From the NCBI GenBank assembly GCA_038231275.1, contig JBBRLQ010000010.1:96001-160000 (forward strand): a DNA stretch of 64,000 bases. The letters run 5' to 3'. The DNA comes from Polyangiales bacterium (GTDB lineage Bacteria > Myxococcota_A > Polyangia > Polyangiales > Polyangiaceae). Made by a program: the position numbers and the translations under genes. The notes under the pieces are model-generated. The model was given only the letters and a program-made list of their open reading frames with translations. It made no database searches and had not been told where the DNA came from. The first letter of the stretch is position 1. The number at the start of each line of letters is the position of its first letter. Shown here piece by piece: positions 3,902 through 52,052 of the stretch.

Positions 3902-5371
3902 GTGCGACGTGCATCGGCGATTTTCAGCGTCCTCCTTCTAGCGATCGTCGTGCTCTTTGCGCCGCGGGCGTGGGCAGAAGATCCCGCCGTCGCGACTGCC
4001 ATCGTGCGCGTTCACGAACGCGAGGTGTACGTCGTCCGCGTGCCGCGTGCCGGGCAGAGTCCGCAGGATCGGGCGCGACTGGCGGGACAAGCGCTCGAGA
4101 GCGTGCTCGAGGACGCGGGCGAGAGCGAGGTGCGCGTCGAGAATCAGGGCGCGCTCGCCGTCCTCTTCGTCGGCAAGTCCCCGATCTTGACACTCACCGA
4201 GGACGACGCCGCCGCCGCCGGAGACGCGACGCTCCAGGTGCACGCGGCGAGCGTCGCTACACGTGTTACCGAGGGCCTCCGCACCGAGCGAAAGCGCAGC
4301 GCGATCGCGACGACGGTCTTCTCGTTCTCGCTGCTCGTGTTCTCGGCGCTCATCGCCTTCCTCTTGCTCCGACGTGTCGGAGACGTCGGTGGCAAGATGC
4401 GCGCGTGGGTACAGAAGAACCCCGAGCGCATCCCCGCGCTCCACCTCGGCAAGATCGAGGTGGTCTCCCGCCGCGCGATTCGTGGAGTGTTGTCGATCGC
4501 GCTCGTCGTCGGTCATCGCATCGCGCAGATCGCGATCATCTACAGCTGGGTGCTCGTCGCCCTCTCGCTGTTCGAGTCGACGCGCGCGTACACCGAACGG
4601 TTGACCGGCTTCGTCCTGACGCCGCTCTCCGCGCTGCTAGGGCGCGTCGGTTCGGCGCTGCCGCTCCTCGTCGTCACCGGCGTCGCCGCGCTCGCGCTCG
4701 GCGTCGTCGTCCGGTTCACTGGCCTCTTCTTCGGGAGCGTCGCGCGCGGCGAAACGAAGGTGGGCTGGCTTCCGTCCGATCTCGCCGAGCCGACCAGCGT
4801 GCTCGCGCGTGCAGGGCTCGTCGTCACCGGGCTCATCCTCGCGGCGCCGCTGATCACGGGGAGCGACGAGGGAGCTCTCTCTCGCGCGGGCGTCGCGGCG
4901 CTCGTCGCGATCGGCCTCGCGTGTACGCCGGTCCTCGCGAGCGCGGCGGCGGGCGTCCCGCAAGTGTACGGCCGACGCCTCGTGCCAGGCGATCACGTGG
5001 AGATCGGCGGCCGCGAGGGGCGCGTGCGACGCGTGACGCTGCTCGAGGTCGAGCTCGACGATCGCTTCGGCTGCGAGCTGCGCGTCCCGCACCTCCTCTT
5101 GCTCGTAAAAGAGACGCGCGTCCTCGGGAAGGCCAACCTCGTCTCCGCGGAGGTCTCGGTCGACCCCCGCGCGCCGCAGACCATCGCGCACGACGCGCTC
5201 CTCGCGGCGGCGCGCACGATCTCGACGCGCGCGAAGGTGGAGCTCGTGAGCCTCGATCACGCGGCCGCGCGCTACCGCGTCACGTGCGAAGAAGGCGCGG
5301 GCAGCCTGGCCGGTGCGATCGCCGATGGGCTCGCGAAGGAGGGCATCGGCCTCGGGGCGGGTCCGGGATGA
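3902..5371 (+). CDS. MscS-family mechanosensitive channel-like protein with N-terminal periplasmic domain
   Basis: Signal peptide, several TM helices, MscS beta-domain pattern 'PGDHVEIGGREGRVRRVTL...LRVPH'. Confidence 0.78.
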   Translation: MRRASAIFSVLLLAIVVLFAPRAWAEDPAVATAIVRVHEREVYVVRVPRAGQSPQDRARLAGQALESVLEDAGESEVRVENQGALAVLFVGKSPILTLTEDDAAAAGDATLQVHAASVATRVTEGLRTERKRSAIATTVFSFSLLVFSALIAFLLLRRVGDVGGKMRAWVQKNPERIPALHLGKIEVVSRRAIRGVLSIALVVGHRIAQIAIIYSWVLVALSLFESTRAYTERLTGFVLTPLSALLGRVGSALPLLVVTGVAALALGVVVRFTGLFFGSVARGETKVGWLPSDLAEPTSVLARAGLVVTGLILAAPLITGSDEGALSRAGVAALVAIGLACTPVLASAAAGVPQVYGRRLVPGDHVEIGGREGRVRRVTLLEVELDDRFGCELRVPHLLLLVKETRVLGKANLVSAEVSVDPRAPQTIAHDALLAAARTISTRAKVELVSLDHAAARYRVTCEEGAGSLAGAIADGLAKEGIGLGAGPG

Positions 5372-5384
5372 GGCGCGCCGACGC

Positions 5385-6623
5385 ATGAACGCGCTCCTCC
5401 TCTTGATGGGGCTCCTGGTGCTCGCGTACATCGGGAGCTTCCTCGTCGGCGGCCGCGCGCTACGCGGCATCGGGCTTCCCTCCGGCGCTGAGTACGTCGC
5501 GCTCGGCTTCGTGCTGGGCCCGCACGTCCTCGGGATCGTCGAGCGGTCGATGCTCGAGTCGTTCGAGCCGATCGTGCAGGTCGCGCTGGGGTGGCTCGCG
5601 CTCGTCATCGGCATCGACTACGGCTTCGCGGGCGAGCGCCGCGTCGGCCCCAAGAGCCTCGCGCTCGGCCTCACGAGCGCGCTCGTCACGGGCGGCGCCG
5701 TCGCGGCCGCAGTCATGGCGGTCCTGTCACGCGTCGCCCTCGTCCCGACGACGATGGACGGCTGGCTCCTCGCCGGCGGACTCGGCGCGGCCGGCGCGGA
5801 GACGACGCGTCACGCCGTACGCTGGGTCACCGAGCGCCACCACGCGAAGGGGCCGGTCTCGAATCTCTTGAACGAGATGTCGCACGCCGACGACGTAGTG
5901 CCGCTTCTCGTCCTCGCGGTCCTCTTCGCGGCGACGCAAAAAGAGGCGCACGTCCCCTGGCAGGTTCCTCTCTACGTCTGGGTGTCGACCACGATCGCGC
6001 TCGGCCTCGTCCTCGGCGCGGTAGCGGCGCTCCTCCTCGGCGGCGAGTTTACGCTGCACGCCACGTGGGGCGTCCTCTTCGGAACGTCCATGCTAGCGAT
6101 CGGCACGGCGGCGCGCCTCGATCTGTCGTCGCTCTCCGTGATGTTCTTCATGGGCGTCGCGCTCGCCGCGGTCTCGCCGCACCACTCGCTCTTGCGCGAG
6201 GCCGTCGCGCCGACCGAACGTCCAGTGCTCCTCCCCGCGCTGCTTCTCGCGGGCGCGCGCATCGATCTCAACGTGCTCCGCTCACGCTACGTCGTCATCG
6301 TCATCGTCGCCGCGCTCCTCGCCCGCGTCCTCGGGAAATTCCTGAGCGGCCTCCTCGTCCGCGTCACGCGCTCGGCGCGCGGCGCGAGCCCAGCGGTGGG
6401 CCTCGCGCTCCTGTCGTCGGGCGCGCTGTCGATCGCGATCGGCCTCGCGTTCGCGCTGCGCTTTCCCGGCGTGGTCGGCGACACGGTGCTCCTCGCGAGC
6501 GCGTTGTCCGCCATCTTCGGCGAGTTCGTGGCGCCGGCGACGCTGCGCCGCGTCCTCGAGGGCGTCGGGGAAGTCCGCGCAGCCGCCCCCGAGTCGACGC
6601 CCGCCCTGCCGGAGGTCCCGTGA
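5385..6623 (+). CDS. Cation:proton antiporter-like membrane protein (paralogue 1)
   Basis: Polytopic; 'YVALGFVLGPHVLG', 'ADDVVPL', 'ARVLGK'; ATG at 5385. Confidence 0.78.
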   Translation: MNALLLLMGLLVLAYIGSFLVGGRALRGIGLPSGAEYVALGFVLGPHVLGIVERSMLESFEPIVQVALGWLALVIGIDYGFAGERRVGPKSLALGLTSALVTGGAVAAAVMAVLSRVALVPTTMDGWLLAGGLGAAGAETTRHAVRWVTERHHAKGPVSNLLNEMSHADDVVPLLVLAVLFAATQKEAHVPWQVPLYVWVSTTIALGLVLGAVAALLLGGEFTLHATWGVLFGTSMLAIGTAARLDLSSLSVMFFMGVALAAVSPHHSLLREAVAPTERPVLLPALLLAGARIDLNVLRSRYVVIVIVAALLARVLGKFLSGLLVRVTRSARGASPAVGLALLSSGALSIAIGLAFALRFPGVVGDTVLLASALSAIFGEFVAPATLRRVLEGVGEVRAAAPESTPALPEVP

Positions 6624-7990
6624 GCAACCCCGCCGTAAAAGCGCCGCCCGCGCGCAAACTCCTCCAAGCGGGCCTCCTCATCGTCATCTCTGGCGTCCTC
6701 TTCGTCGCTACGCGCGTCGTGCCCGAGATGCACGGCGGCTCGGGCACGATCGCCGCGGTCGGCTTCCTCCTCCTCGCCGGTACGCTCCTCAGCGAGCTCG
6801 TCGAGCTGCTCGGCATTCCGCACCTCACGGGCTACCTCCTCGCCGGCATCCTCGCGGGACCGCACGTGCTGCACCTCATCGATCATCGCTCGGTGGAGCG
6901 CCTCTCCAGCGTCAACGCGCTCGCGCTCGCCCTCATCGCGATGGCAGGCGGCGCCGAGCTGAAGATGGAGCTGCTGAAGAAGGGCTTCCGATCGCTGGGG
7001 TGGGCGACGCTCCTTCAAAGCCTGCTCGTGCCGGTGCTCATGACCAGCGTCTTCATGGCCGTGCGCCCGCTCATCCCGTTCGCCAAGCCGCTCACGCTCT
7101 CGGCGCTCGCCGGCGTCGGGCTCCTGTGGGGCATCATGTCGGTCACGCGGAGCCCGTCGGCCACGCTCGGCATTCTGTCGCAGACGCGCGCGCAGGGGCC
7201 GGTCGCGCGCTTCATCCTCACGTTCGTCATGACGAGCGACCTCGTGGTCGTCGTCCTCCTCGCGCTCGGCCTCACGGTCGCGCGGCCGCTTATCGAGCCG
7301 GGCGCTGCTTTCTCCGGCGCCGCATTCCGGCGCCTCGCCCACGAGATCCTCGGCTCGGTGTCGCTCGGCACGACGCTGGGCATCGTCCTCGTCCTCTACG
7401 TGCGGCTCGTCGGGCGGCAGCTCCTCGTCGTCTTCATCGCGCTCGGCTTCGGGTTGACCGAAGTGCTCCGCTACCTGAACTTCGAGCCGCTCCTCACGTT
7501 CATGGTCGCGGGCTTCCTCGTGCAGAACCTGTCGAGCCAGGGCGAGAAGTTCCTCCATGCGATCGAACAGACCGGCGGCGTCGTGTACGTCGTCTTCTTC
7601 GCGACGGCCGGCGCCGACCTCGACGTTCCTCTCCTCAGGCTCCTCTGGCCAGTCGCGCTCATCCTCACCGGGTCGCGCGCGCTCATCTCCTGGGGAGTCT
7701 CGCGGTTGGCCGGGCGCATCGCCAACGATCCACCGACCGTGCTGCGATGGGGTTGGTCGGGGCTCGTGTCGCAAGCGGGGCTTGCGCTTGGCCTCGGGTC
7801 GCTCGTCGCGCGCGAGTTCCCGAGCATCGGGGGCGGCTTCCGTGCGCTCGCCATCGCGACGGTCGCGATCAACGAGCTCGTGGGCCCGGTCCTCTTCAAG
7901 CTGGCGCTCGATCGCGCAGGGGAGACGAGCGAAGAGCCGCGCCTCACGATCCCGAGCCTGCGCCCGCCGCCGCCTCCCGTCGTCGAGTGA
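6620..7990 (+). CDS. Cation:proton antiporter (paralogue 2)
   Basis: GTGA overlap with the previous stop; 'IPHLTGYLLAGILAGPH', 'FFATAGADLD', 'SQAGLALGL', 'INELVGP'. Confidence 0.86.
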   Translation: MSNPAVKAPPARKLLQAGLLIVISGVLFVATRVVPEMHGGSGTIAAVGFLLLAGTLLSELVELLGIPHLTGYLLAGILAGPHVLHLIDHRSVERLSSVNALALALIAMAGGAELKMELLKKGFRSLGWATLLQSLLVPVLMTSVFMAVRPLIPFAKPLTLSALAGVGLLWGIMSVTRSPSATLGILSQTRAQGPVARFILTFVMTSDLVVVVLLALGLTVARPLIEPGAAFSGAAFRRLAHEILGSVSLGTTLGIVLVLYVRLVGRQLLVVFIALGFGLTEVLRYLNFEPLLTFMVAGFLVQNLSSQGEKFLHAIEQTGGVVYVVFFATAGADLDVPLLRLLWPVALILTGSRALISWGVSRLAGRIANDPPTVLRWGWSGLVSQAGLALGLGSLVAREFPSIGGGFRALAIATVAINELVGPVLFKLALDRAGETSEEPRLTIPSLRPPPPPVVE

Positions 7991-7998
7991 CGCCGCAC

Positions 7999-9597
7999 AT
8001 GAGTCTCGGCCCTTCGCTCCGCATCATCGCGATCAACGACGTCTACTCGCTCGAGAACCTGCCGCGCCTGCGGAGCCTCGTGGAGCACCATCGCACCGTC
8101 GCGCCGGCCGACCTGCTCCTCGTCACCCTCGCGGGAGACTTCGTCGCGCCGAGCGTCCTGTCGAGCCTCGACGCGGGGCGCGGCATGGTCGACTGCCTGA
8201 ACGAGGTCGGCGTCACGCACGTCACCTTCGGCAACCACGAGGACGACATCACCTACGAGGAGCTCCAGAAACGCGCGCAGGAGCTCCGCGGGGTTTGGCT
8301 GGCCACGAACGTCCACGATTTTCAGCCGATCCTGCCCGCGAGCGACGTGGTGCGCGTGGGTCGCCCCGGCGGGCGGACCGTCAAGGTGGGCCTCGTCGGC
8401 GTCGTCATGACCGATCCGGCCGCCTACCGCGGTGCGCCCTTCGGTGGCGCGAAGCTCGACCCGGCCAACGACGCCGCGCGCCGCGAGGCCGCTCGGCTGA
8501 TTCGCGACGAAGGATGCGCGTGCGTCATTCCGCTCACCCACCAGACGCTCGAGGAAGATCGCGAGCTCGCGCGCACGCAGCGGACGCCGCCGTTTCCCAT
8601 CCTCATCGCCGGGCACGAGCACGAGCCGCACCTCGAAGAAATCCAAGGGACGTGGATCGAGAAGGCCGGAGCCGACGCGTTCCACGCCGCCGTGATCGAT
8701 CTCGTGTGGCCCATAGAGGCGCCGCCCGCCGGCGCACCCGATCTGCCGAGTGTGCGCGTCGTGCTCGAGGACGTCGCGCCGTACGCGGAGGATCCGGCAC
8801 TGCGCGCGCGCGTCGAAGTGCACATGGCGAGGGTCCACGAGCTCGAGAAGGCGCCGCTGGTCAGGCTCGCGCCGGGGGAGGTGCTGTCGTCGGTGGGCAC
8901 GCGCCTTCGCCAGACGTCGATCGGCACGCTGGTCTGCAACCGCGTTCGCGATGCCCTGGGCGCCGAGGCGTGCCTCTTCAACGGCGGCGGCATCCGCGGG
9001 TCGCGCGAGTACGTCGGGCGAATCACCTACGGCGACCTGAAGGCGGAGATCCCGTTCGAGAACGAGGTCGTCGTCGCGACGATGCCGGGCCGCGTCGTGG
9101 CGGCTGCCGTCCGCGCGTCGCGCTCGCACGTGCCAGCCGAATCGGGCGGGTTCCTGCAGGTCGACGATCGCGTCACCATCACCGAGGACGGCGCGCTCGT
9201 GACGATCGCTGGCGAGCTGCTCTCCGAAGAGCGCGAGTACCGCGTCGCCCTCGTGCGAAACCTCCTCACCGGTCTCGATCACATCGAGCCGCTCGTGCGC
9301 TTCGCCACCGAGTTCCCCGAGCGCGTGCCTCCGGCTGGGAGTGGGCGCGACATCAAGCTGGTGTTGATCGAGGCGTTCGCGGTGGAGCTGTGGCGGCATC
9401 TCGGCGGCTTCGACGCGATCGACACCAACCATGACGGCGTCATCTCCGAGGAGGAGCTCGCCGCGGCGATTGGTCGCGTCACCTCGAGCGCGCCGTCGAA
9501 GGTGGCCGCCGAGCTTGTGCTGCGTGCGCTGGACGCCGATCATGATCTGGCAATCACGCGCGAAGAGGCCGAGAAAATAGGGCGCGGCGCGACGTGA
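7999..9597 (+). CDS. Metallophosphoesterase/5'-nucleotidase with C-terminal EF-hands (alternative GTG start at 7987)
   Basis: NDVY, GDF, GNHE, LTH, GHEH motifs; NGGGIRG C-domain; EF loops DTNHDGVISEEE and DADHDLAITREE. Confidence 0.88.
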   Translation: MSLGPSLRIIAINDVYSLENLPRLRSLVEHHRTVAPADLLLVTLAGDFVAPSVLSSLDAGRGMVDCLNEVGVTHVTFGNHEDDITYEELQKRAQELRGVWLATNVHDFQPILPASDVVRVGRPGGRTVKVGLVGVVMTDPAAYRGAPFGGAKLDPANDAARREAARLIRDEGCACVIPLTHQTLEEDRELARTQRTPPFPILIAGHEHEPHLEEIQGTWIEKAGADAFHAAVIDLVWPIEAPPAGAPDLPSVRVVLEDVAPYAEDPALRARVEVHMARVHELEKAPLVRLAPGEVLSSVGTRLRQTSIGTLVCNRVRDALGAEACLFNGGGIRGSREYVGRITYGDLKAEIPFENEVVVATMPGRVVAAAVRASRSHVPAESGGFLQVDDRVTITEDGALVTIAGELLSEEREYRVALVRNLLTGLDHIEPLVRFATEFPERVPPAGSGRDIKLVLIEAFAVELWRHLGGFDAIDTNHDGVISEEELAAAIGRVTSSAPSKVAAELVLRALDADHDLAITREEAEKIGRGAT

Positions 9598-11056: not shown

Positions 11057-11572
11057 GTGGAGTCCCTTCTCCGAGGACGCTTGTTCCCCCTTCTCTTCGC
11101 GCTCGCCGGCTGCAGCACGAGTAGCGGCGGCAATTCGGTCGACGCCGCCGCCGACGTCACCGAGGAGACCGGCGCGCGCGACACCGGAAAGGACGGGCCC
11201 GATCTCGACGCCGGCGCCGACGTGGGGAAGGCCGCGCCGGGCGTGGGCTTCGTCGCGTGCGGCGCCAGCCAGTGTGCGATCCCCGGCGAGGTGTGCTGCC
11301 CGCGCGTCGACGGCGGCGCCTGCTTCCCGCGAGGCGCGGCGCCGTGCAGCGGGATCGAGTGCGATCAGCCGGACGACTGCGCCGATGGCACGACGTGCTG
11401 CTACCAATTCCCTGCCGGCTGCGCCGACGTATCGGCGACGTGCAAGAAGACGTGCGGCGCCGCGGACGTGCCCGCGTGCCTTGGCCTGACCGACTGCAAT
11501 GCCTGCGTGTCGCTCACGTGCGCCGGCGTCCCGCTGACGACGTGCGGGACCGACGGCCTCTGCTGCCACTGA
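11057..11572 (+). CDS. Cys-rich lipoprotein
   Basis: LAGC lipobox, DA-rich linker, 'CDQPDDCADGTTCC' module. Confidence 0.75.
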   Translation: MESLLRGRLFPLLFALAGCSTSSGGNSVDAAADVTEETGARDTGKDGPDLDAGADVGKAAPGVGFVACGASQCAIPGEVCCPRVDGGACFPRGAAPCSGIECDQPDDCADGTTCCYQFPAGCADVSATCKKTCGAADVPACLGLTDCNACVSLTCAGVPLTTCGTDGLCCH

Positions 11573-11592
11573 GAGTAGAGCGAGCGCTCGCG

Positions 11593-12003
11593 TCAGCCCT
11601 TCTCGACGTCCTTGCCGGACTTCTCCCATCCGCGGATGCCGGCGGGCATCACGTACACGTTCGCGTATCCGAGGTTCTCCGCTGCGACCGCAGCGGTGTG
11701 GCACGCGTGTCAGAGCTCGTTAGCGCAGTAGAAGACGAGGGTGGCGTCCTTGTCGGGGGGCAGATCGCCCGCCGTCACTTTGTCGAACGCGACCCACTTG
11801 GCGCCGGGGACGTGGCTCTTCGTCCAGCGCTCTTTGTCGTTGTTGTCGAAGATGAAGGTCTTCCCATCATGCCGGGCGATGCGCGAGGCGACGTCGTCCA
11901 CGCTCAGCTCTTTCAGCGGAGCGCCGCTCGCGGACTTCTTCGCGCAGCCCGCGGCCAAGGCGGCGAGCATCGCGGCGCTGAGCACGAAGGCACGACGGTT
12001 CAT
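11593..12003 (-). CDS. Rhodanese-domain lipoprotein, putative selenoprotein (in-frame TGA at 11710..11712), 136 aa
   Basis: Reading through the TGA gives FYCANEL-U-HACHTAAVAAENLGYANVYVMPAGIRGWEKSGKDVEKG*, which restores the canonical rhodanese C-terminus; SHVPGA motif; NRRAF twin-arginine-like motif and AAGC lipobox. Confidence 0.85.
11679..11696 (-). promoter_or_regulatory. Putative bacterial SECIS hairpin
   Basis: mRNA CCGCUGC-GGUC-GCAGCGG: perfect 7-bp stem with a GGUC loop, starting 13 nt 3' of the UGA. Confidence 0.72.
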
Positions 12004-12103
12004 GCGCGAAACTCTAGCGCGCCCACACCGGTTCGGCCAGTCGCGGCGTCGTTCTCGCGATCAAACGGGCCCCCATCGGACATCTCCCGGTCGGCGAGAG
12101 TCG

Positions 12104-12277
12104 ATGCGTCGAAAGTCAGCGGACAAGCAGAGCCTGAAGCTCCCGATCGAGCTCGTCGTCGAGATGAGGGGTGAGGCGAGGCGCCTCGACAAATCGCTCT
12201 CGTGGGTGGCGCAAGAGGCCTGGCGCCGCGCCAAGGAGCGCATTCGAGCGCTCCCGGGCGTGCGCGACGTCGAGTGA
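12104..12277 (+). CDS. TIGR04563 (MXAN_4361/4362)-family small protein, 57 aa
   Basis: KQSLKLPIELVVEMRGEARRLDKSLSWVAQEAWRRAKERIRALP fits the family pattern; it is the tail of ORF 11741..12277. Confidence 0.85.
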   Translation: MRRKSADKQSLKLPIELVVEMRGEARRLDKSLSWVAQEAWRRAKERIRALPGVRDVE

Positions 12278-12571
12278 TTTACTCGTCGATGGCCTTGGGC
12301 GACGACGCGAGCGTGCAACGCGGCGCGCTCGACGCACGACGCGATCGCCCTGGTGTCGCTGGCAAGCGGCAGCGTCGGAGGGCTCCGCGTTCGCGCCTTA
12401 AACGGTCCGGGCGAGCTGCTCGTCGGCGATGACCGTCGCGTGCACCTCGTGTCGAACCACCGCCTGCCGCGGATCCCTCGTTCCCCAGTCGCGGCAAATG
12501 TTCCCGAACGCGTCGACCCCGTCCTCATCCTGACGCCCGGCGCCCAGTAGTAGGGAGTAGAGGGGAGCAGC

Positions 12572-12609
12572 CTCGACGGAATCTGCCGCTCTCGGTGGAA
12601 TCCGTCGAG
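12572..12609 (+). other. Long intergenic stem-loop
   Basis: CTCGACGGA/TCCGTCGAG 9-bp stem, one A-A mismatch, a 7-bp upper stem with two G-U pairs, CTCT loop. Confidence 0.55.
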
Positions 12610-12684
12610 AGCACGGAGAAGAAAGCCGCAAGAGACGTGAAGGATCGGTGGTGCGTCGGGCCGTGTGCGGACATATGCAGCGGC

Positions 12685-13809
12685 ATGATGCACGCGCCGC
12701 GCAGCCTGGTTCGTTTCTCTCGTCTCGGTCTGGTCGGTCTGGTCGCCGGTGTCGCTGCGCTCGCGTGCAGCGGCGCATCGTCGCCGGGCGGAACAGGCGG
12801 GGACGATGGCGGCAGCTCCGGCACCTCGGGCACCTCGGGCACCTCGGGGACGTCGGGCACTTCGGGGGCATCGGGCACCTCGGGAACGTCGGGCACTTCG
12901 GGGACGTCCGGCACGTCAGGGACCTCCGGCTCATCGGGCAGCTCGGGCTCTTCGGGCAACACGGACGGCGGCACCGATGGGTCGACGGCGACGAAGGTCA
13001 CGACCGTCTTCACGGTCCTGTTCGAGAACCACGACTACGCGGAGATCGTCGGCTCCGCGAACGCGCCCTACTTCAACTCGCTCATCGCGAAGTACGGCCT
13101 CGCGACGAACTACATCGACTCGAACGTCCACCCGTCGCTCCCCAACTACCTCTTCATGATCAGCGGCGGCACGCAGGGCGTGACCACCGACTTCGATCCG
13201 ACGACCAACGGCTTCCCGAAGGACGTGCAGCACATCGGCTCGCAGCTCGTCGCGAAGAGCGTCCCGTGGCGGTCGTACCAAGAGAGCATGGGGACGGCAT
13301 GCAAGCTCACGGGGAGCGGAAAGTACGCGCCGAAGCACGATCCCTTCCTCTACTTCACCGACATCCAGAACGGCGCCGGCGGCCTCTGCGCGAGCACCCA
13401 GGTCGACTACGCGCAGTTTCCGACCGATCTCGCGGCGAACACGAACCGCTTCTATTTCATCACGCCGAACCTCACCTCCGACGGGCACGATCCGACGAGC
13501 AATCCGGTGACCGGTCTCAAGAACTCCGACGCGTGGGCGCAGACCGAGATCGCGAAGATCATGGCGTCGCCGGCGTACCTGAACGGCGGGGTCATCTTCA
13601 TCACCTGGGACGAGGCCGAGGGGCGCAACGGCGACTCGAAGGATCAGATCCCGATGATCGTGGTGAGCGAGCTCATCAAGACGGCGGGGTACAAGTCGAA
13701 CGTCGCGTATTCGCACAAGAGCTGGCTCGCGACGGTGGAGGACATCCTCGGCCTCGGGCGCCTCGCCACGACGACCGCCGAGCCGACGCTGTCCGAGTTC
13801 TTCAAGTAG
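12685..13809 (+). CDS. Phosphoesterase-family (acid phosphatase/PLC-like) lipoprotein
   Basis: ALAC lipobox, (GTS)n linker, FENHDY, HPSLPNY, YAPKHDPF, ITWDE. Confidence 0.9.
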   Translation: MMHAPRSLVRFSRLGLVGLVAGVAALACSGASSPGGTGGDDGGSSGTSGTSGTSGTSGTSGASGTSGTSGTSGTSGTSGTSGSSGSSGSSGNTDGGTDGSTATKVTTVFTVLFENHDYAEIVGSANAPYFNSLIAKYGLATNYIDSNVHPSLPNYLFMISGGTQGVTTDFDPTTNGFPKDVQHIGSQLVAKSVPWRSYQESMGTACKLTGSGKYAPKHDPFLYFTDIQNGAGGLCASTQVDYAQFPTDLAANTNRFYFITPNLTSDGHDPTSNPVTGLKNSDAWAQTEIAKIMASPAYLNGGVIFITWDEAEGRNGDSKDQIPMIVVSELIKTAGYKSNVAYSHKSWLATVEDILGLGRLATTTAEPTLSEFFK

Positions 13810-13896: not shown

Positions 13897-15015
13897 ATGC
13901 ATCCTTCTCGCGTCGTTCTGCGCGTCCTTGCCGCGGCCGTCGGTCTGGTCGCGCTCTTGTCCGTGAGCTGCGGCCGGAGCGAGCTGTTCGCCGACACCGC
14001 ACTCACCGATGACGGCGGCGTCGACGGCGCGACCCCGTCGGCGTGCGGATCCTGCAGCGAATTGTCGGCGGAGTGCGGGACCGTCACGGACCGCTGCGGC
14101 AAATCGCTCGATTGCGGATCGTGCGCGGTCCCGAAGACGTGTGGCGGCGGCGGAACCGCGAACCAATGCGGGTGCCAGGCGTCGACGTGCAGCGCGGTCG
14201 GGGCCGAGTGCGGCGAGGCCCTCGACGGATGCGACGGCGTGCTCTCGTGCGGGACGTGTCCGGCTGGCCTGACGTGCGGAGGGGCCGGCGCCAACCGCTG
14301 CGGCCCGAACTCATGTGCTCCCAAGACGTGCGCGCAGCTCGGCGTCGCGTGCGGCAAGGTCTCGGACGGGTGCAGCAAGGTGCTCGACTGCGGCGGATGC
14401 TCGGCGCCCCAGACCTGCGGCGGCGGCGGCACCGTCAACGTGTGCGGCTGCACGCGCAGCACGTGCGCGGGCCGCGGCGCGACGTGCGGCAAGGTCTCCG
14501 ACGGATGCGGCAAAGAGCTCGACTGCGGGGGATGCACCGCTCCGCAGTCGTGCGGTGTCGGCGGCACGAACGCCTGCGGGTGCGTCGCAGCCACGTGCGC
14601 TTCGATCGACGCGCACTGCGGGACGATGCTCGACGGCTGCGGCGGGACGCTCAGCTGCGGGACGTGCACGGGCGGCGGTCGGCGCGGCGGGAAGGTGTGC
14701 ATCGGCTCGGGCCCCGCGAATTGCAGTGAAGAAGGAGAGTCGTGCACGCCGACGACGTGCGCGCGTCAGGGTGCGCGGTGCGGCAAAGTCGCCGACGGGT
14801 GCGGCGGGCTCCTCGACTGCGGCACGTGCGCGGTTGGCCAAACCTGCGGCGGTGGCGGCGTCTTCAACCAATGCGGCTGCACGCCGACGACGTGCGACGC
14901 CCAGGGTGCCACCTGCGGCAAGCTCGGAGACGGGTGCGGCGGCAGTCTCGACTGCGGCACGTGCGCGGCCGGGCAGGCGTGCACGTCCGTCAATCAGTGC
15001 GCGCGTACCAAGTAG
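13897..15015 (+). CDS. Lipoprotein made of 7 tandem 8-Cys repeats
   Basis: Lipobox-like SVSC; unit of about 45 aa, C-x4-C-x6-CG-x3-DGCG-x2-LDCG-x-C-x5-CGGGG-x2-N-x-CG. Confidence 0.85.
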   Translation: MHPSRVVLRVLAAAVGLVALLSVSCGRSELFADTALTDDGGVDGATPSACGSCSELSAECGTVTDRCGKSLDCGSCAVPKTCGGGGTANQCGCQASTCSAVGAECGEALDGCDGVLSCGTCPAGLTCGGAGANRCGPNSCAPKTCAQLGVACGKVSDGCSKVLDCGGCSAPQTCGGGGTVNVCGCTRSTCAGRGATCGKVSDGCGKELDCGGCTAPQSCGVGGTNACGCVAATCASIDAHCGTMLDGCGGTLSCGTCTGGGRRGGKVCIGSGPANCSEEGESCTPTTCARQGARCGKVADGCGGLLDCGTCAVGQTCGGGGVFNQCGCTPTTCDAQGATCGKLGDGCGGSLDCGTCAAGQACTSVNQCARTK

Positions 15016-20414: not shown

Positions 20415-20491
20415 CGAGCGTGGCGTGTGCCATGCATGGCGCCGCGATCACGGGGTGCGAAGCGCGCGCGGCAGCATGGTAGAAGTGCCCC

Positions 20492-21613
20492 GTGAGGCGC
20501 GGTTTTCTCGGCTCAGCTGCTCGATGGCTCGTCCGTGCGAGCATGCTCGCGAACGGCGTCGTCGTCGCGTGCGGCTGCGGAGCTCCGCCTCCACCTCGTC
20601 CGATCGCACGCGCCACTCCCGTCGCGGACGCCGCCGGGATGGCCGCCGTCGATGCGAGCTCAGGCGGCGCCGTCGACGCGGCCGCGTTCGACGTCCTCGA
20701 TGCTGGCGCGCCGGTGGCGATTCTCGACTCCGCGCCGGCGCCTCCTCCCGATCCGATGGCGACGCACAAGGACTCGCGCGACGATCTCCTGGCGCTCATC
20801 GACGTCCCGAGCCCGCGCGAGGCCGCGCTCCTCCGCGGTCTCTTCGGTACCGACGGCCCCGGACAGATGAACCAGGGAAACAAATCCCTCGCGCGTCACA
20901 AGAAGAGTCGCGAGGAGTGCCTCGCCGGCCTCAAAGACATCGTCATCCAAACGCCCGAGCAGCGCGCGACGTGCGGCGCCGAAAACATGGTCCCCGTCGC
21001 GGCGAAGGGCAAAGACCCCGCGTATTGCATCGACGTCTTCGAGTTTCCGAACCGCGCGTGCGAGCTGCCCATCGTGTGGTCGTCGCCGTCGGGGGCGAGC
21101 AATGTGTGCAAATTACAAGGAAAGCGACTCTGCACGCAGTCCGAATGGCAGCTCGCCTGCCGCGGCGATCCCGAGGGCGGCAAGGACCGGCGGTACGCGT
21201 ACGGCGACAAGCTCGATCTCGACGTGTGCAACACGCACCGCCCGCACCGCCTGCGGTGCAACCCGCTCGGCTCCAAGACCGCGTGGGCGACCTGCGCGAC
21301 CGACACCGAGCCGTCGGGCTCCTTCCCCTCCTGCCGCTCGCGCTTCGGCGTCTTCGATCAGCACGGCAACGTCGCCGAGGAAATGTCGCGCAAGGACGTC
21401 GACGGGAAGGTCGTCAGCCAGCTGAAAGGCAGCGCCTGGTTCTACAGCGAGGTCGCCCGGGAGCCCGATCGGCCCATTCCCGCCAGCACCCCCTACAAGG
21501 AGAGCGCCCACTCCGACACCTGCAACTTCGACCCGCGGTGGCACGTCGAGCCCCTCGAGGCCGCCGTGCACGTGAACTACCACCTCGGATTTCGCTGCTG
21601 CAAGGGCCTCTGA
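20492..21613 (+). CDS. FGE-sulfatase (SUMF1)-domain exported protein
   Basis: CIDVFEFPN, GKRLCTQSEWQLAC, FGVFDQHGNVAEE, LGFRCC. Confidence 0.85.
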   Translation: MRRGFLGSAARWLVRASMLANGVVVACGCGAPPPPRPIARATPVADAAGMAAVDASSGGAVDAAAFDVLDAGAPVAILDSAPAPPPDPMATHKDSRDDLLALIDVPSPREAALLRGLFGTDGPGQMNQGNKSLARHKKSREECLAGLKDIVIQTPEQRATCGAENMVPVAAKGKDPAYCIDVFEFPNRACELPIVWSSPSGASNVCKLQGKRLCTQSEWQLACRGDPEGGKDRRYAYGDKLDLDVCNTHRPHRLRCNPLGSKTAWATCATDTEPSGSFPSCRSRFGVFDQHGNVAEEMSRKDVDGKVVSQLKGSAWFYSEVAREPDRPIPASTPYKESAHSDTCNFDPRWHVEPLEAAVHVNYHLGFRCCKGL

Positions 21614-37988: not shown

Positions 37989-39299
37989 ATGGGTCATCAC
38001 GCCGAGAGGGTCACGGAGCGCACGAATCGCGCGGTGAAGGGGACGACGCCGGCGTCCCTCGCAGAGTTTCTGCGCGTCCGGGCCGCCACCGAAGCGCTCG
38101 CCGCGCCGCTGTCGGCGGAGGACCAGACCCTCCAAGCCGCGCCCGAGTGCAGTCCCACCAAATGGCATCGCGCGCACACGACCTGGTTCTTCGAGACGTT
38201 CCTCCTCGCGCCGCGGGGGATCGCGCCGCTCCACCCCGAGTGGGCGACGCTCTTCAACTCGTACTACGTGGCCGTCGGGCCGCGCGGCGCCAGGACGAAG
38301 CGAGGGATGCTCTCGCGCCCGTCGTCTGCGGAGATCGGAGAGTATCGGCGCGCGGTCGATGGCCGCGTCGTTCGCTTGCTCGAGTCCGCGGGCGACGACG
38401 AGCTGAGCGAGATCGAAGGCGTGATCGCGCTGGGCCTCGCGCACGAAGAGCAGCACCAGGAGCTGCTCCTCACGGACATTCGTTGGGCGCTGCACGACAA
38501 CCCGCTCTTGCCGGCGTATCGGCAGCTCGGCGCCCCGCCACATGATGCGCGCGCATCGAAGCTCTCGTTCCAGATGCTCGAAGGAGGGCTACGCGAGATC
38601 GGCCTCTCGGAAGGGACCGAGTTCCGCTTCGACAACGAGGAGCCGCGGCACAGCGTGTTCGTCGAGCCGTTCGCGCTCGGGCGCCGGCTGGTGACTGTCG
38701 GCGAGTGGAAGGCCTTCGCCGACGCGGGCGGCTACGACGACGCGCTCCTTTGGCTGTCGGATGGCTTCGACTGGGCGCGCGCGAACGACGTCCACGCGCC
38801 GATGTACGCCACCCGCGACGGCGGCGCGCTCGTGTCGTTCGGCCTCGGCGGCGCGCGCGAGCTCCACGACGATGAGCCGCTCGCGAACGTCAGCTTCTAC
38901 GAGGCCGACGCGATCGCGCGCTTCATGGACGCGCGCCTGCCGACGGAGGCGGAGTGGGAGGTCGCGGCGCTCACCACCAACGCCGATCCCCGCGCGGGGA
39001 ATTTCGTCGGGGACGATCTGCTCTCTCCGCGATCCGCCGGCGGCGAGGGGGTGACGCAGCTCTACGGTGATGCGTGGGAATGGACCAGCTCGGCGTACGC
39101 GCCCTATCCAGGATTTCGCACTCGCGCCGGGGCCGTTGGCGAGTACAACGGGAAGTTCATGGTGAACCAGCTCGTCCTCCGCGGCGGATCGTGCCTCACC
39201 CCTCGAGGCCATGTGCGCGCCAGTTACCGCAATTTCTGGCATCCGCATACGCGGTTCCAGACGACCGGCGTGCGGCTCGCGCGCGCGGGGGACCGTTGA
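37989..39299 (+). CDS. egtB: Ergothioneine biosynthesis sulfoxide synthase
   Basis: SPTKWHRAHTTWFFETF, HEEQHQELLLTDI, GEYNGKFM, YRNF. Confidence 0.94.
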   Translation: MGHHAERVTERTNRAVKGTTPASLAEFLRVRAATEALAAPLSAEDQTLQAAPECSPTKWHRAHTTWFFETFLLAPRGIAPLHPEWATLFNSYYVAVGPRGARTKRGMLSRPSSAEIGEYRRAVDGRVVRLLESAGDDELSEIEGVIALGLAHEEQHQELLLTDIRWALHDNPLLPAYRQLGAPPHDARASKLSFQMLEGGLREIGLSEGTEFRFDNEEPRHSVFVEPFALGRRLVTVGEWKAFADAGGYDDALLWLSDGFDWARANDVHAPMYATRDGGALVSFGLGGARELHDDEPLANVSFYEADAIARFMDARLPTEAEWEVAALTTNADPRAGNFVGDDLLSPRSAGGEGVTQLYGDAWEWTSSAYAPYPGFRTRAGAVGEYNGKFMVNQLVLRGGSCLTPRGHVRASYRNFWHPHTRFQTTGVRLARAGDR

Positions 39300-40276
39300 G
39301 CGCGTCGCCCCAGGGGAACGTCGCGCACGACGAGGTCGCGGAGGCGGTCCTGCGCGGGCTGACGGCGCCACGCAAATCGCTGCCGCCGTTCTTGTTCTAC
39401 GACGCGCGCGGGTCGGCGCTCTTCGAGGACATCACCGAGCTCCCGGAGTACTACCTGACGCGCACCGAGCGCGGGATCTTGGTGGACGACGCCGATCGCA
39501 TCGTGGCGGCGATCCTCCGGAGCGCGCGCGGCCCCGTGGCCGTCCTCGAGCTCGGCGCCGGCACCGCGACGAAGACCGACATCCTTCTCCAGGCGTTCGC
39601 GCGGGCCCGCAAGGACGTGCACTACTTCCCGGCCGACGTCTCACCGACGCCGCTCGACGTCGCCCGCGCGCGCATCGCCTCCACGCTGCCACAGATTCGC
39701 GTGTCGCCCATCGTCGGGACCCACGACGACGCGCTCCAGCGCATGAGGGAGTGGGAGGGCGAGCTCGCCGTATTTTTCCTGGGAAGCTCCATCGGAAACT
39801 ACGCGGACGACGACGCCGTCGCGCTGATCGCGGAGGTACGCGGCGCGATCGGACGGCATGGCTCGCTGTTGCTCGGCGCCGATCGGACCAAGTCGCTCGA
39901 CGTCCTGCTGCCGGCCTACGACGATCCGGCCGGCGTCACCGCGGCGTTCAACCGCAACGTGCTCGTTCGCATCAACCGCGAGCTCGGGGGCGATTTCGAT
40001 CCGGCGTCGTTCCGTCACGTCGCGATCTGGAACGAAGGGACGAGCGCGATCGAGATGCACCTCGAGAGCGTCGTCGCACAGCGCGCGCACGTTGCCGCGC
40101 TCGGCCTGACCGTCGACTTTGCGCGAGGTGAGCGCATCCATACCGAGTCGAGCCACAAATACACGGAGCGCCACGTGGCGGAGCTCCTCGAGGCCGCGGG
40201 GCTCAGGTCCGAGTCGGCGTTCGAGGACGCACGGCGCTGGTTCTCCTTGCACCTCGCGCGCGCGCTCTCCGCGTAA
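39296..40276 (+). CDS. egtD: L-histidine N-alpha-trimethyltransferase
   Basis: TTGA overlap with egtB; YDARGSALFEDITELPEYYLTRTE, ELGAG, AYDDPAGVTAAFN, IHTESSHKY. Confidence 0.95.
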   Translation: MSASPQGNVAHDEVAEAVLRGLTAPRKSLPPFLFYDARGSALFEDITELPEYYLTRTERGILVDDADRIVAAILRSARGPVAVLELGAGTATKTDILLQAFARARKDVHYFPADVSPTPLDVARARIASTLPQIRVSPIVGTHDDALQRMREWEGELAVFFLGSSIGNYADDDAVALIAEVRGAIGRHGSLLLGADRTKSLDVLLPAYDDPAGVTAAFNRNVLVRINRELGGDFDPASFRHVAIWNEGTSAIEMHLESVVAQRAHVAALGLTVDFARGERIHTESSHKYTERHVAELLEAAGLRSESAFEDARRWFSLHLARALSA

Positions 40277-50196: not shown

Positions 50197-51816
50197 TCAG
50201 GGGAACGTGGTGAACAGATCCCCGAGGTCCGTCGCGTTGGCCGCGCCCCTCAGGAACGGCCCGACGCCGAAGATCTCCTGCATCGTGCGCAGCGTGGAGC
50301 TGTGCGAGTACGAGATCGTGTTCGAGTAGCCGTGCCCCTTGGCGTGGGGCGAGAGCACGATCATGCCGATGGGGAAGTCGCCCCCCTCGCTCTCGTCCCA
50401 CGTGACGAACACCGCGCCGCCTTGCGCGTATGAGCTCGACGCGAAGATCTTCGGCAGCTCGTGGGACAGCCACGTGTCGCCGTTCTTCACCGCGTCGCTC
50501 GTCGCGCAGCCGGTCGAGTTGTGCATGTCGTCGCACAGATCCGGCGTGATGAAGTTGTAGCGAGCTACGGTGCCCTGCGCGAGATCGTTCGCGAGCTCGC
50601 TGAACGGGCGCACGTGCTGGATGCACGTCGCCGACGACGACGAGTTCGTGTTCGTCACGTCGTCGAAGAAGACGAAGGGCACGTGCTTCGGCGCGTAGAG
50701 CCCGCTGTTCGTGAGCGGGCACGTCGCGCCGCTGATGCCCTCGGCGTAGGACTTCCAGGAGATGCCGGCCGCGTCGAGCAGCGTGGAGAGGTGGCTCGTC
50801 GTCGACTGATGGTTCGACGACGGGTTGTTGTCGTTCGTGACGCCGAGGTTGCTGCCCGACTCGAGCCAGATGTAGTTCGGCTCGCTGGGGTGAATTCCCG
50901 GCGGGTTCACGTACGCCTCGGTGTGCGAGCCCATCGGCAGGAGGGTCCCGTTGATATAGGGCGCCGATGCACTGCCCTTGATGCTCGACCAGTTGTGGTT
51001 CTCCATGAGGACGATGAACACGGTCTCGATGGCGTGACCGCCGGCGTCGCCGTGACCCGCGTCGCCGTGGCCTGCGTCGCCGTGGCCTGCGTCGATTCCG
51101 CCGCCGTCGTGGCCCCCGTCGGGAACGCCACCGTCGCCCACGTCGCCGCTCAGCGTGCAGCCGAGCCCGAAGCAGAGGTCGAGCACCGCGTGGAGCTCGA
51201 CGCCGTTGGCCGCGCCGCCGCGCTGGCCATGGAGCTTGTCGAAGAAGCCGACGCCGTCGACGCTGATCGGGATGTTCGCCGTCGTGAAGTTGCTGCTCGG
51301 CGTGTACTTGGCGGTGAACGTCGCGCGCGTCTTCGCGATCTCGGCGGCGAACGGGCTGCCGCTCTTCACGCACTTCGGCGAAGGGATCTCGACGTTCATC
51401 GTGTGCTTACCGTCCGAGACGATGAGGTGGATGTCGTTGTCCGCCTCGAGCTTGAACTGCTGCAGCGTCACGTCGGTGAGGCGGAAGACTTGCTCCTCCG
51501 TTGGCGCGATGCGATTCGCCGCGGGGAGCGTCTTCGGCGCAGGGAGCGCGAGGAGCGAGGTGATGGTCGTCGGCTGCGCGATACGGTTCACGATGCCGAC
51601 GTCGGGATCGGTGCCGGTCTTGACGCTCCAGCGCTCGGTGCCGCACCCGCCGACCAGCGCTTCGTCGTCGTCCTCGTCCACGCTCTCGGAGGTGGTGCCG
51701 CCGCAGCCCGCCCAGACTCCGAGCGCACAGCAGAGGAGCACGGACACGGCGACGAGCCATCGCGCGCGCAACGTCTCTGCGACGTCCCATCGGCTAATAA
51801 GGAATGAGCGCTTCAT
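50197..51816 (-). CDS. Exported 'CGxERW' domain + phosphoesterase fusion (start uncertain)
   Basis: CGTERWSVKTGTD domain, (GDAGH)n linker, MENHNW, HPSEPNY, YAPKHVPF, VTWDE. Confidence 0.88.
   Translation of the reverse strand: MKRSFLISRWDVAETLRARWLVAVSVLLCCALGVWAGCGGTTSESVDEDDDEALVGGCGTERWSVKTGTDPDVGIVNRIAQPTTITSLLALPAPKTLPAANRIAPTEEQVFRLTDVTLQQFKLEADNDIHLIVSDGKHTMNVEIPSPKCVKSGSPFAAEIAKTRATFTAKYTPSSNFTTANIPISVDGVGFFDKLHGQRGGAANGVELHAVLDLCFGLGCTLSGDVGDGGVPDGGHDGGGIDAGHGDAGHGDAGHGDAGGHAIETVFIVLMENHNWSSIKGSASAPYINGTLLPMGSHTEAYVNPPGIHPSEPNYIWLESGSNLGVTNDNNPSSNHQSTTSHLSTLLDAAGISWKSYAEGISGATCPLTNSGLYAPKHVPFVFFDDVTNTNSSSSATCIQHVRPFSELANDLAQGTVARYNFITPDLCDDMHNSTGCATSDAVKNGDTWLSHELPKIFASSSYAQGGAVFVTWDESEGGDFPIGMIVLSPHAKGHGYSNTISYSHSSTLRTMQEIFGVGPFLRGAANATDLGDLFTTFP
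51044..51093. repeat. 15-bp tandem repeat x3 encoding GDAGH
   Basis: GCGTCGCCGTG(A/G)CC(C/T) units. Confidence 0.8.
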
Positions 51817-52052
51817 TCGTCGCGAACAGCGGTGTCACGCGACGCGCGGAGTGGCCAATAAAAACGCAGTGTGGGACGGTCGCTTTCCAGCGCAGGCGGA
51901 GCGATGGTTCCAGCGTAAAAATATATGGACACCACACGCACATCGCCCGCGGCGCCAGGTGTCGCGATTTCCTAGTTGGCTGTCGTGAAATGCCAATTAC
52001 GACGTCGGACCGGCGCGCACACGGACGCATGGTGCGATGTCGGATGGCGCCG

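Follow-up and report, generated by a model that had tools for sequence, protein, structure and literature searches.

A probable selenocysteine codon in the gene of an exported rhodanese lipoprotein from Polyangiales and related Myxococcota

Results

A rhodanese reading frame that continues past an in-frame UGA

The 64,000-nucleotide stretch analyzed here, hereafter the window, comes from a Polyangiales bacterium (assembly GCA_038231275.1, contig JBBRLQ010000010.1, positions 96,001 to 160,000), has a G+C content of 69.5%, and carries on its reverse strand a rhodanese gene that annotation cuts short at an internal TGA. A preliminary description of this DNA had proposed that the codon specifies selenocysteine (Sec). 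Under translation table 11 the open reading frame (ORF) 11710..12003 (-) ends after 97 amino acids at ...LVFYCANEL, with the TGA at 11712..11710. Past this TGA at codon 98 the frame contains 38 open codons, HACHTAAVAAENLGYANVYVMPAGIRGWEKSGKDVEKG, and then a second TGA at 11595..11593. Pfam family PF00581 matches residues 38-128 of the read-through protein in one stretch that crosses the TGA (E 3.3e-13, 50.4 bits against a cut-off of 22.2); the 97-residue piece alone covers only positions 4-70 of the 102 in the profile. What the preliminary description had stated about the sequence itself, namely the ORF, the TGA, the extension, the hairpin and the N-terminus, all holds. In particular, the ORF track does stop at 97 residues with 38 more codons in frame, and the domain match bears out the claim that a rhodanese C-terminus lies beyond the TGA. 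The features of the gene, all on the reverse strand, are as follows.

11593..12003 (-): complete gene, made up of 136 codons (the 98th predicted to encode Sec) and the terminal TGA; the Pfam Rhodanese match crosses the internal TGA
11944..12003 (-): putative signal peptide MNRRAFVLSAAMLAALAAG and lipobox Cys20 (L-A-A-G-C), read from the sequence
11620..11892 (-): rhodanese homology domain, residues 38-128 (PF00581 at E 3.3e-13, AlphaFold2 model, PDB matches)
11725..11727 (-): Cys93 codon TGC, the canonical rhodanese catalytic Cys, placed where strand 88-92 ends (invariant in all 79 sequences, solved-rhodanese alignments, model)
11710..11712 (-): in-frame UGA interpreted as Sec98, the +5 residue of the active-site loop (TGA/Cys alternation across relatives)
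11701..11703 (-): Cys101 codon TGC, first turn of helix 100-110, forming U-x-x-C with Sec98 (helix from the model)
11679..11696 (-): hairpin resembling a selenocysteine insertion sequence (SECIS), with 7-bp stem CCGCUGC/GCAGCGG and loop GGUC at 11689..11686 (sequence and relatives)
11593..11595 (-): true terminator, again TGA (sequence)

Relatives carry cysteine or TGA at position 98

Searched against protein databases, the read-through sequence gave a list of 120 clusters, of which 101 end exactly at residue 97, 15 run on with C98...C101 and two with C98...S101. The remaining two have Trp (FYCANAHWDACH, cluster P0018) or Leu (FYCANEFLHACH, cluster P0022) at position 98; these could be gene calls made under another genetic code, errors or real substitutions. 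The shortened records are named 'rhodanese-like domain-containing protein', 'rhodanese-related sulfurtransferase' or 'hypothetical protein', and the expectation that annotation pipelines would truncate the protein is borne out in public databases.

One genome per species was then scanned for related loci, with an 11-sequence alignment as the query. The 72 loci recovered are nearly all from Myxococcota (Polyangiaceae, Kofleriaceae, Sandaracinaceae and unclassified 'Myxococcales'), with a few titled Bdellovibrionota or Pseudomonadota. At the codon aligned to the window TGA, 33 loci have TGA, and TGC or TGT stands in 40 gene copies; the sequence to either side is conserved, an outcome that the preliminary description had named as a check. 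TAA or TAG occurs at this codon in none of the 72 loci. The TGA is shared with 33 other species-level genomes, at identities down to about 39%. All 34 TGA genes (the 33 loci and the window gene) encode U-x-A-C-H. Among the 40 Cys genes, 38 have Ser at the third position of this motif and two have C-x-A-C-H, one from Byssovorax cruenta (locus L015) and one being the second copy in the Polyangiales locus L024. In that locus the TGA gene (4899-5357) and its Cys paralogue (C-M-A-C-H, 5507-5989) form a same-strand tandem with roughly 150 bases between them, and the paralogue could be a selenium-independent back-up copy.

For residue-level comparison we used a 79-sequence alignment comprising the window protein, 31 TGA loci, 37 Cys loci and 10 metagenomic proteins. 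It omits the Sec copy of L024 (identical to L023 in the Sec-flanking stretch), L030 (no start found), the near-duplicates L033 and L050, and L070, which runs off its contig. Position 98 is an invariant Cys/Sec column in this alignment, alongside the invariant D53, L89, F91, Y92, C93, A105, A108, G112, G122 and W126. On the family tree, which is built on few columns and leaves many forks open, Sec and C-x-x-C forms are interleaved, with at least eight changes between them, two of which are forced by well-supported branches.

The sequence downstream of the TGA has a coding signature

None of the 34 TGA genes contains a stop within 33 codons after the TGA, and their extensions run for 37-44 codons. 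Pairwise divergence among these genes at codon positions 1, 2 and 3 is 0.244, 0.245 and 0.494 downstream of the TGA, compared with 0.305, 0.237 and 0.469 upstream. By this pattern of divergence, the sequence after the TGA is evolving as translated coding sequence. The same genes end in TGA in 27 cases, TAG in six and TAA in one, and TGA likewise ends 27 of the 46 window ORFs with high G+C at third codon positions. Since TGA terminates 27 of 34 family genes, it is evidently still a stop in these genomes and the code has not been reassigned. One other in-frame TGA with coding-like flanks was considered in the window, at 13644..13646, and was dropped because it was judged to lie antisense to other genes.

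A stem-loop follows the UGA in TGA forms

As had been described, a perfect hairpin, CCGCUGC-GGUC-GCAGCGG at 11696..11679 (-), starts 13 nt after the UGA, which places its loop 20 nt after the UGA. The bSECISearch rule calls for a G in an apical loop 16-37 nt after the UGA. Inside that interval, 34 of 34 TGA genes have a loop that begins 20-26 nt past the codon on an unbroken stem of 6 bp or more, as do only six of 40 Cys genes (Fisher 3e-15, a statistic that ignores kinship). Stems of at least 7 bp occur in 26 of 34 TGA genes versus two of 40 Cys genes, and stem lengths in the TGA genes are 6-8 bp. Four stem classes, distinct in sequence and register, can be recognized: loop GGUC (12 genes); loops CGUGA, CGGGA or AGGUA (12 genes); CGGGU, or CGUGA shifted by one base (five genes); and an 8-bp stem with loop GGC (five genes). 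Base-pair changes are found within classes. Pair 21/30, where both bases are third codon positions, is U-A in three genes and C-G in nine, a compensatory change; the outermost pair 17/34 is C-G in seven genes, G-C in two and mismatched in three; and pair 18/34 of class B is G-C in seven genes, C-G in four and A-U in one. These data bear out a hairpin that is tied to the TGA forms, mostly missing from the Cys forms, and accompanied by compensatory changes.

Synonymous resampling separates the contribution of the peptide from that of codon choice. In the TGA forms the mean stem is 6.84 bp observed versus 5.23 bp expected, and P exceeds 0.44 for none of the 32 distinct TGA sequences, the median being 0.26. 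In the Cys forms the corresponding means are 4.44 and 4.28 bp, with a median P of 0.68. The difference between the two expected values indicates that TGA-form peptides themselves permit longer stems, and the excess of observed over expected stems in the TGA forms indicates that codon choice adds to this effect. Folding energy over a 34-nt stretch discriminates weakly (mean -13.7 kcal/mol in TGA forms versus -11.7 in Cys forms, P 0.001), and because all the sequences are G+C-rich it was replaced by the positional stem test and the resampling.

One of the closest known counterparts is the element of E. coli fdhF (UGA140), which is likewise a stem-loop inside the coding region after the UGA. Both genes read UGA-CAC-G, and the GGUC that the preliminary description had placed in the fdhF loop is indeed there on K-12 DNA, starting 18 nt after the UGA in the E. 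coli K-12 genome record compared with 20 nt in the window gene. The two elements differ in that the window stem is a perfect 7-bp G+C-rich helix that lacks the bulged U, a feature important for E. coli SelB. In addition, the relatives of the window gene use other loops (CGUGA, CGGGU, GGC), and the proteins are unrelated. The Cys form of Byssovorax cruenta JCM 12614 (L015:432-482; TGC, C-P-A-C-H) keeps an 8-bp hairpin at a SECIS-like position, which may be the remnant of a recent change from Sec to Cys.

Export signal, fold and active-site loop

The N-terminus, MNRRAFVLSAAMLAALAAGC, reads as a signal peptide ending in the lipobox L-A-A-G-C (residues 16-20, by pattern match). The strict lipobox pattern recurs in 58 of the 79 aligned family members (24 of 32 Sec forms and 34 of 47 Cys forms), and in most of the others a Cys follows an A/P-rich stretch or the cleavage site resembles type I. 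Export is well supported by these sequence patterns, and the protein is probably lipid-anchored. The preliminary description had also suggested the twin-arginine translocation (Tat) route. The window signal does read N-R-R-A-F-V-L, and RR-x-hydrophobic is confined to the closest relatives of the window protein, with eight of 32 Sec forms and three of 47 Cys forms carrying it; no Tat-signal model of Pfam or NCBIfam matches the window protein at E<=1. The exported lipoprotein thus stands, and the Tat route lacks support as a trait of the family.

The read-through product is, by prediction, a 136-residue single-domain rhodanese with the loop Cys93-x4-Sec98-x2-Cys101. Its AlphaFold2 model has a mean predicted local distance difference test (pLDDT) score of 89.7, with values of 94-98 over residues 31-136. 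In the model, strand 88-92 ends at Cys93, residues 93-99 form a loop, and helix 100-110 follows with Cys101 in its first turn. Comparison with the PDB gave 107 matches at E<=0.001 with rhodanese folds at the top, the best being the single-domain rhodanese BH2092 (3nhv; template modelling score 0.72). Cys93 is invariant in all 79 sequences and aligns with the catalytic Cys column of solved rhodaneses. Sec98 would lie five residues past Cys93, second to last in the seven-residue active-site loop of the model. This loop is two residues longer than that of a classical rhodanese: the profile alignment gaps 6mxv there by two, and the distance from the Cys to a conserved Gly-Tyr is 19 residues in the window protein and BH2092 versus 17 in 6mxv. 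The protein lacks the six-residue loop of classical sulfurtransferases (C-x4-[R/T/S]), in that its +5 residue is Sec or Cys rather than Arg, Thr or Ser.

BH2092 from Bacillus halodurans (3nhv/3o3w), a structural-genomics rhodanese for which we know of no function, superposes with a root-mean-square deviation of 1.4 A over 106 columns; its active-site segment is as long as that of the window protein and likewise has a second Cys at +5. The corresponding segments are YCWGPACNGAT in BH2092 and YCANELUHACH in the window protein. BH2092 thus has Cys in place of Sec and Thr at the third position, and identity is about 24%.

A profile search over 1.84 billion representatives returned 310 clusters at E<=1e-30 and 3,570 at E<=1e-10. 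In the 149 newly fetched of the best 150 matches, Cys occupies +5 in 175 of the 201 loop instances that belong to the 15 commonest classes, and the +8 residue in these 175 is Ser in 129, Ala in 19, Cys in 16 and another residue in 11. Going by these counts, the TGA forms would be the branch that uses selenium within a large class of C-x4-C rhodaneses. The C-x4-C domain also occurs in tandem arrays (proteins P0123-P0271, for example P0123, P0124 and P0180). Many of these proteins contain two to six stretches, and one of 2,327 residues contains 15 matched stretches. P0123 itself is lipoprotein-like with two C-x4-C rhodanese domains (FYCGSPKCRASH and FYCGSPRCAASH). An earlier word-based search for longer relatives had given none, a false negative in light of the tandem multi-domain relatives that the hidden Markov model search later found.

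Relation to known Sec-containing rhodaneses

As the preliminary description had noted, Sec-containing rhodanese-like proteins have been described before. The available part of a 2026 review (PMC13188914) lists five forms:

Form 1: motif UxxS, WP_010941598.1
Form 2: motif UxxG, MBM9537886.1
Form 3: motif CxU, NF041203
Form 4: motif UxxG, MCY3690685.1
Form 5: motif UxxxxU, TsoB, NF045694

Rhodanese-type selenoproteins also appear in earlier surveys, in the sections available (PMC9312934, PMC1976440, PMC2398784, PMC1088965). That description called the window protein a 'hidden' selenoprotein candidate, a label less apt than it supposed, given the five forms already catalogued. Its C-x4-U-x2-C loop matches none of the five motifs as that review lists them; the comparison is by listed motif, and the Sec of form 1 or TsoB may share its column. 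A full-text literature search (rhodanese UxxC, Myxococcota selenoproteins, Myxococcales SelB) returned no description of a C-x4-U-x2-C rhodanese family.

The best NCBIfam match is TsoB (NF045694), over region 78-135 at E 4.6e-11. Its listed U-x4-U has the same spacing as Cys93-x4-Sec98, a likeness of listed motifs and not residue by residue. However, the match scores 41.5 bits against a cut-off of 805, and the TsoB model spans 572 positions, includes a fused DsbD-like part and has two Sec residues, whereas the window protein is a single domain of 136 residues with one predicted Sec and a lipoprotein signal. NF041203 (form 3, 'LYCAU') is closer in size, with about 126 positions, residues 15-134 aligning to profile positions 5-124, and also has an extra Sec near the catalytic Cys. 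Here the window protein reaches 35.9 bits where the cut-off is 115, and the model name implies Sec at +2 (C-A-U), where the window protein has Asn95, its own Sec being placed at +5. With scores under both cut-offs, the window protein is a member of neither family.

Genes around the rhodanese gene

Genes for two Cys-rich, secreted or lipoprotein-like proteins with no Pfam family flank the rhodanese gene: one of 171 residues with many Cys (11057-11572, +) and a 372-residue protein with repeats of C-G-x-C-x4-C-G-G-G-G (13897-15015, +). The 20-base gap at 11573-11592 between the rhodanese gene and the convergent gene 11057..11572 holds the palindrome GAGCGAGCGCTCGC; a simple promoter and terminator scan of 11400..12400 found no sites and no T-rich terminator. 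PF04185 Phosphoesterase proteins are encoded at 12595-13809 (+), with a long (SGT)n linker after the signal peptide, and at 50197-51834 (-). Together with a 5'-nucleotidase/metallophosphatase with EF-hands at 7000-9597, they make up a group of secreted enzymes for phosphate scavenging in the neighbourhood of the rhodanese gene. Farther away are an EgtD-type histidine methyltransferase (39071-40276, +; PF10017, E 2e-101) and, well separated from it, an FGE-sulfatase-domain protein (20483-21613, +), both parts of an ergothioneine-type pathway.

Discussion

Decoding of the UGA

Taken together, the TGA/Cys alternation in relatives, the hairpin and the coding-type divergence indicate that the UGA at codon 98 very probably encodes Sec in an exported rhodanese lipoprotein, giving the Cys93/Sec98/Cys101 arrangement on the rhodanese loop that the preliminary description had put forward. 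The stem-loop 13-30 nt downstream of the UGA would act as a bacterial SECIS element for SelB, directing Sec to codon 98. Several observations weigh against this interpretation. Within the 64-kb window no tRNA was found, and hence no tRNA-Sec, and no SelA, SelB or SelD domain is present in the 37 ORFs scanned. Two of the 120 listed clusters carry neither Cys nor a stop at position 98 but Trp (P0018) or Leu (P0022). At E<=10 Rfam reports no SECIS family in the gene region, only one chance snoRNA match (E 2.3). Taken singly, the window hairpin is within chance: its 66-nt stretch has a z of -0.96 against shuffles, and a stem of at least 7 bp arises at this place in 16.9% of 20,000 synonymous redraws that keep the peptide and use window codon usage. 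Since the hairpin is unremarkable by itself, its weight rests on the comparison with relatives. The residual doubt concerns mainly the Sec machinery, for which the search covered the 64-kb window. In the portion of a published inventory available (PMC5029168), Anaeromyxobacter, Haliangium ochraceum, Myxococcus, Plesiocystis pacifica and Stigmatella aurantiaca are listed with SelD, SelA and SelB, and Sorangium cellulosum So ce56 is listed as lacking them; a further survey, also available in part, lists 11 selenoproteins for Anaeromyxobacter dehalogenans (PMC1794560). Such patchy use of Sec in Myxococcota, as far as these sources show it, fits a family that mixes TGA and Cys forms interleaved on its tree.

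Other explanations of the open frame account for less of the data. C or A directly after a UGA makes a leaky stop context, and one or the other follows the UGA in all 34 genes. Near-cognate insertion of Trp, Cys or Arg without Sec machinery would then yield isoforms of 97 and 136 residues, with the hairpin merely stimulating read-through. The recorded Trp at position 98 in one relative and the lack of Sec-machinery genes within the window would fit this scenario. We nevertheless regard it as improbable, since relatives otherwise always have Cys at this invariant active-site column, the hairpin loop lies at bacterial SECIS distance with letters that match fdhF, and termination at residue 97 would remove helix 100-110 together with the final strand and helix of the modelled fold. 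It is even harder to see the gene as a pseudogene or an assembly error, with a recent change from TGC to TGA and a downstream frame that is open by chance. The two codons are one base apart and pipelines do call a 97-residue protein, but the same TGA recurs in 33 other species-level genomes at identities reaching down to about 39%, 101 of 120 listed clusters end there, and the downstream sequence is stop-free with coding-type divergence in 34 of 34 genes. Least probable of all, to the point of being negligible, is an alternative genetic code in which TGA is a sense codon for Trp or Gly genome-wide. A frame open across TGA is what such a code predicts, yet TGA terminates 27 of the 34 family genes, including the window gene itself, as well as 27 of the 46 high-GC3 window ORFs, and the single other in-frame TGA candidate in the window was judged antisense.

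Proposed chemistry of the Cys-Sec-Cys loop

If codon 98 is Sec, its position on the Cys93 loop, the placement of Cys101 at the start of the following helix, and the presence of Cys101 in 34 of 34 Sec forms lead us to propose, tentatively and at somewhat less than even chance, a relay among the three residues. Cys93 would take up a substrate-derived group, either sulfane sulfur or an oxidized adduct. The Sec98 selenol could then attack the Cys93 adduct to give a Cys93-Sec98 selenenylsulfide, or pass sulfur or selenium onward. Cys101 would resolve this intermediate through a Sec98-Cys101 bond, and an envelope reductant would re-reduce the pair. The protein would accordingly not be a simple thiosulfate sulfurtransferase but a sulfur/selenium transferase or oxidoreductase of the envelope with redox activity. 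Redox motifs usually have U/C-x-x-C at the N-terminus of a helix. A Cys with a second Cys five residues on also occurs in the C-x4-C-R loop of low-molecular-weight protein tyrosine phosphatases and ArsC, where the pair sits on an anion-binding loop and can form a disulfide, providing an analogy for a Cys93-Sec98 bond. Those enzymes have another fold, and the window protein lacks the conserved Arg after the second residue. TsoB, as a fusion selenoprotein of rhodanese and DsbD-like parts in the available description, offers a further analogy that points to a redox role.

The genomic context gives no help in choosing between the relay and other chemistries. ORF clustering revealed no conserved functional neighbour across all loci, and the families scanned include no DsbD/CcdA or thioredoxin partner. 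What recurs is clade-level synteny in Cys-form Kofleriaceae (an epimerase, an acyl-CoA dehydrogenase, a trehalose-phosphate synthase and an unnamed ORF), none of which the TGA forms share. The relay is argued from the placement of the three residues in the sequence and from analogy. An unlikely but weighty alternative keeps the selenoprotein and changes its chemistry: the protein is then a classical sulfurtransferase working through a Cys93 persulfide while Sec98 tunes reactivity or accepts selenium. Its function could then be selenium delivery or detoxification, or envelope reduction of arsenate or selenite, with no Sec98-Cys101 redox cycle. The rhodanese fold and invariant Cys93 are as such an enzyme would have them, and position 101 is Ser in 38 of 40 genomic Cys copies and in 129 of the 175 Cys-at-+5 instances from the top representatives, from which it follows that the third Cys is dispensable in the wider family. 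On the other hand, Cys101 is kept in every TGA form, so that Sec and Cys101 go together, and on the tree Sec forms interleave solely with C-x-x-C forms, both of which favour the relay.

Implications

The selenoprotein family described here is well supported, spanning 33 genomes and about a hundred database clusters. Its members are found in Polyangia and Haliangiales, groups that are scarce in selenoproteome surveys to the extent that these were available. The family may amount to a sixth form of Sec-rhodanese, an envelope lipoprotein of soil and freshwater Myxococcota in which an elongated loop presents a Cys-x4-Sec-x2-Cys triad as a selenenylsulfide relay, although we hold this combined reading to be a little short of an even prospect. 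If true, it would mean that a rhodanese fold acts as an extracytoplasmic redox enzyme in which Sec and Cys have been swapped repeatedly. No new principle is involved, as new selenoproteins are routinely discovered through Sec/Cys pairs that come with SECIS hairpins.

The chief practical consequence is a systematic, family-wide annotation error. The family is recorded as fragments of 93-118 residues, and the public records consulted, of 96-114 residues and named 'rhodanese-like domain-containing proteins', miss a third of the fold. A family model that marks codon 98 as Sec would mend these shortened records. The chief scientific interest lies in the Cys-x4-Sec-x2-Cys loop itself, which would constitute a natural experiment on the effect of a selenol in a rhodanese site, with Cys controls supplied by close relatives.

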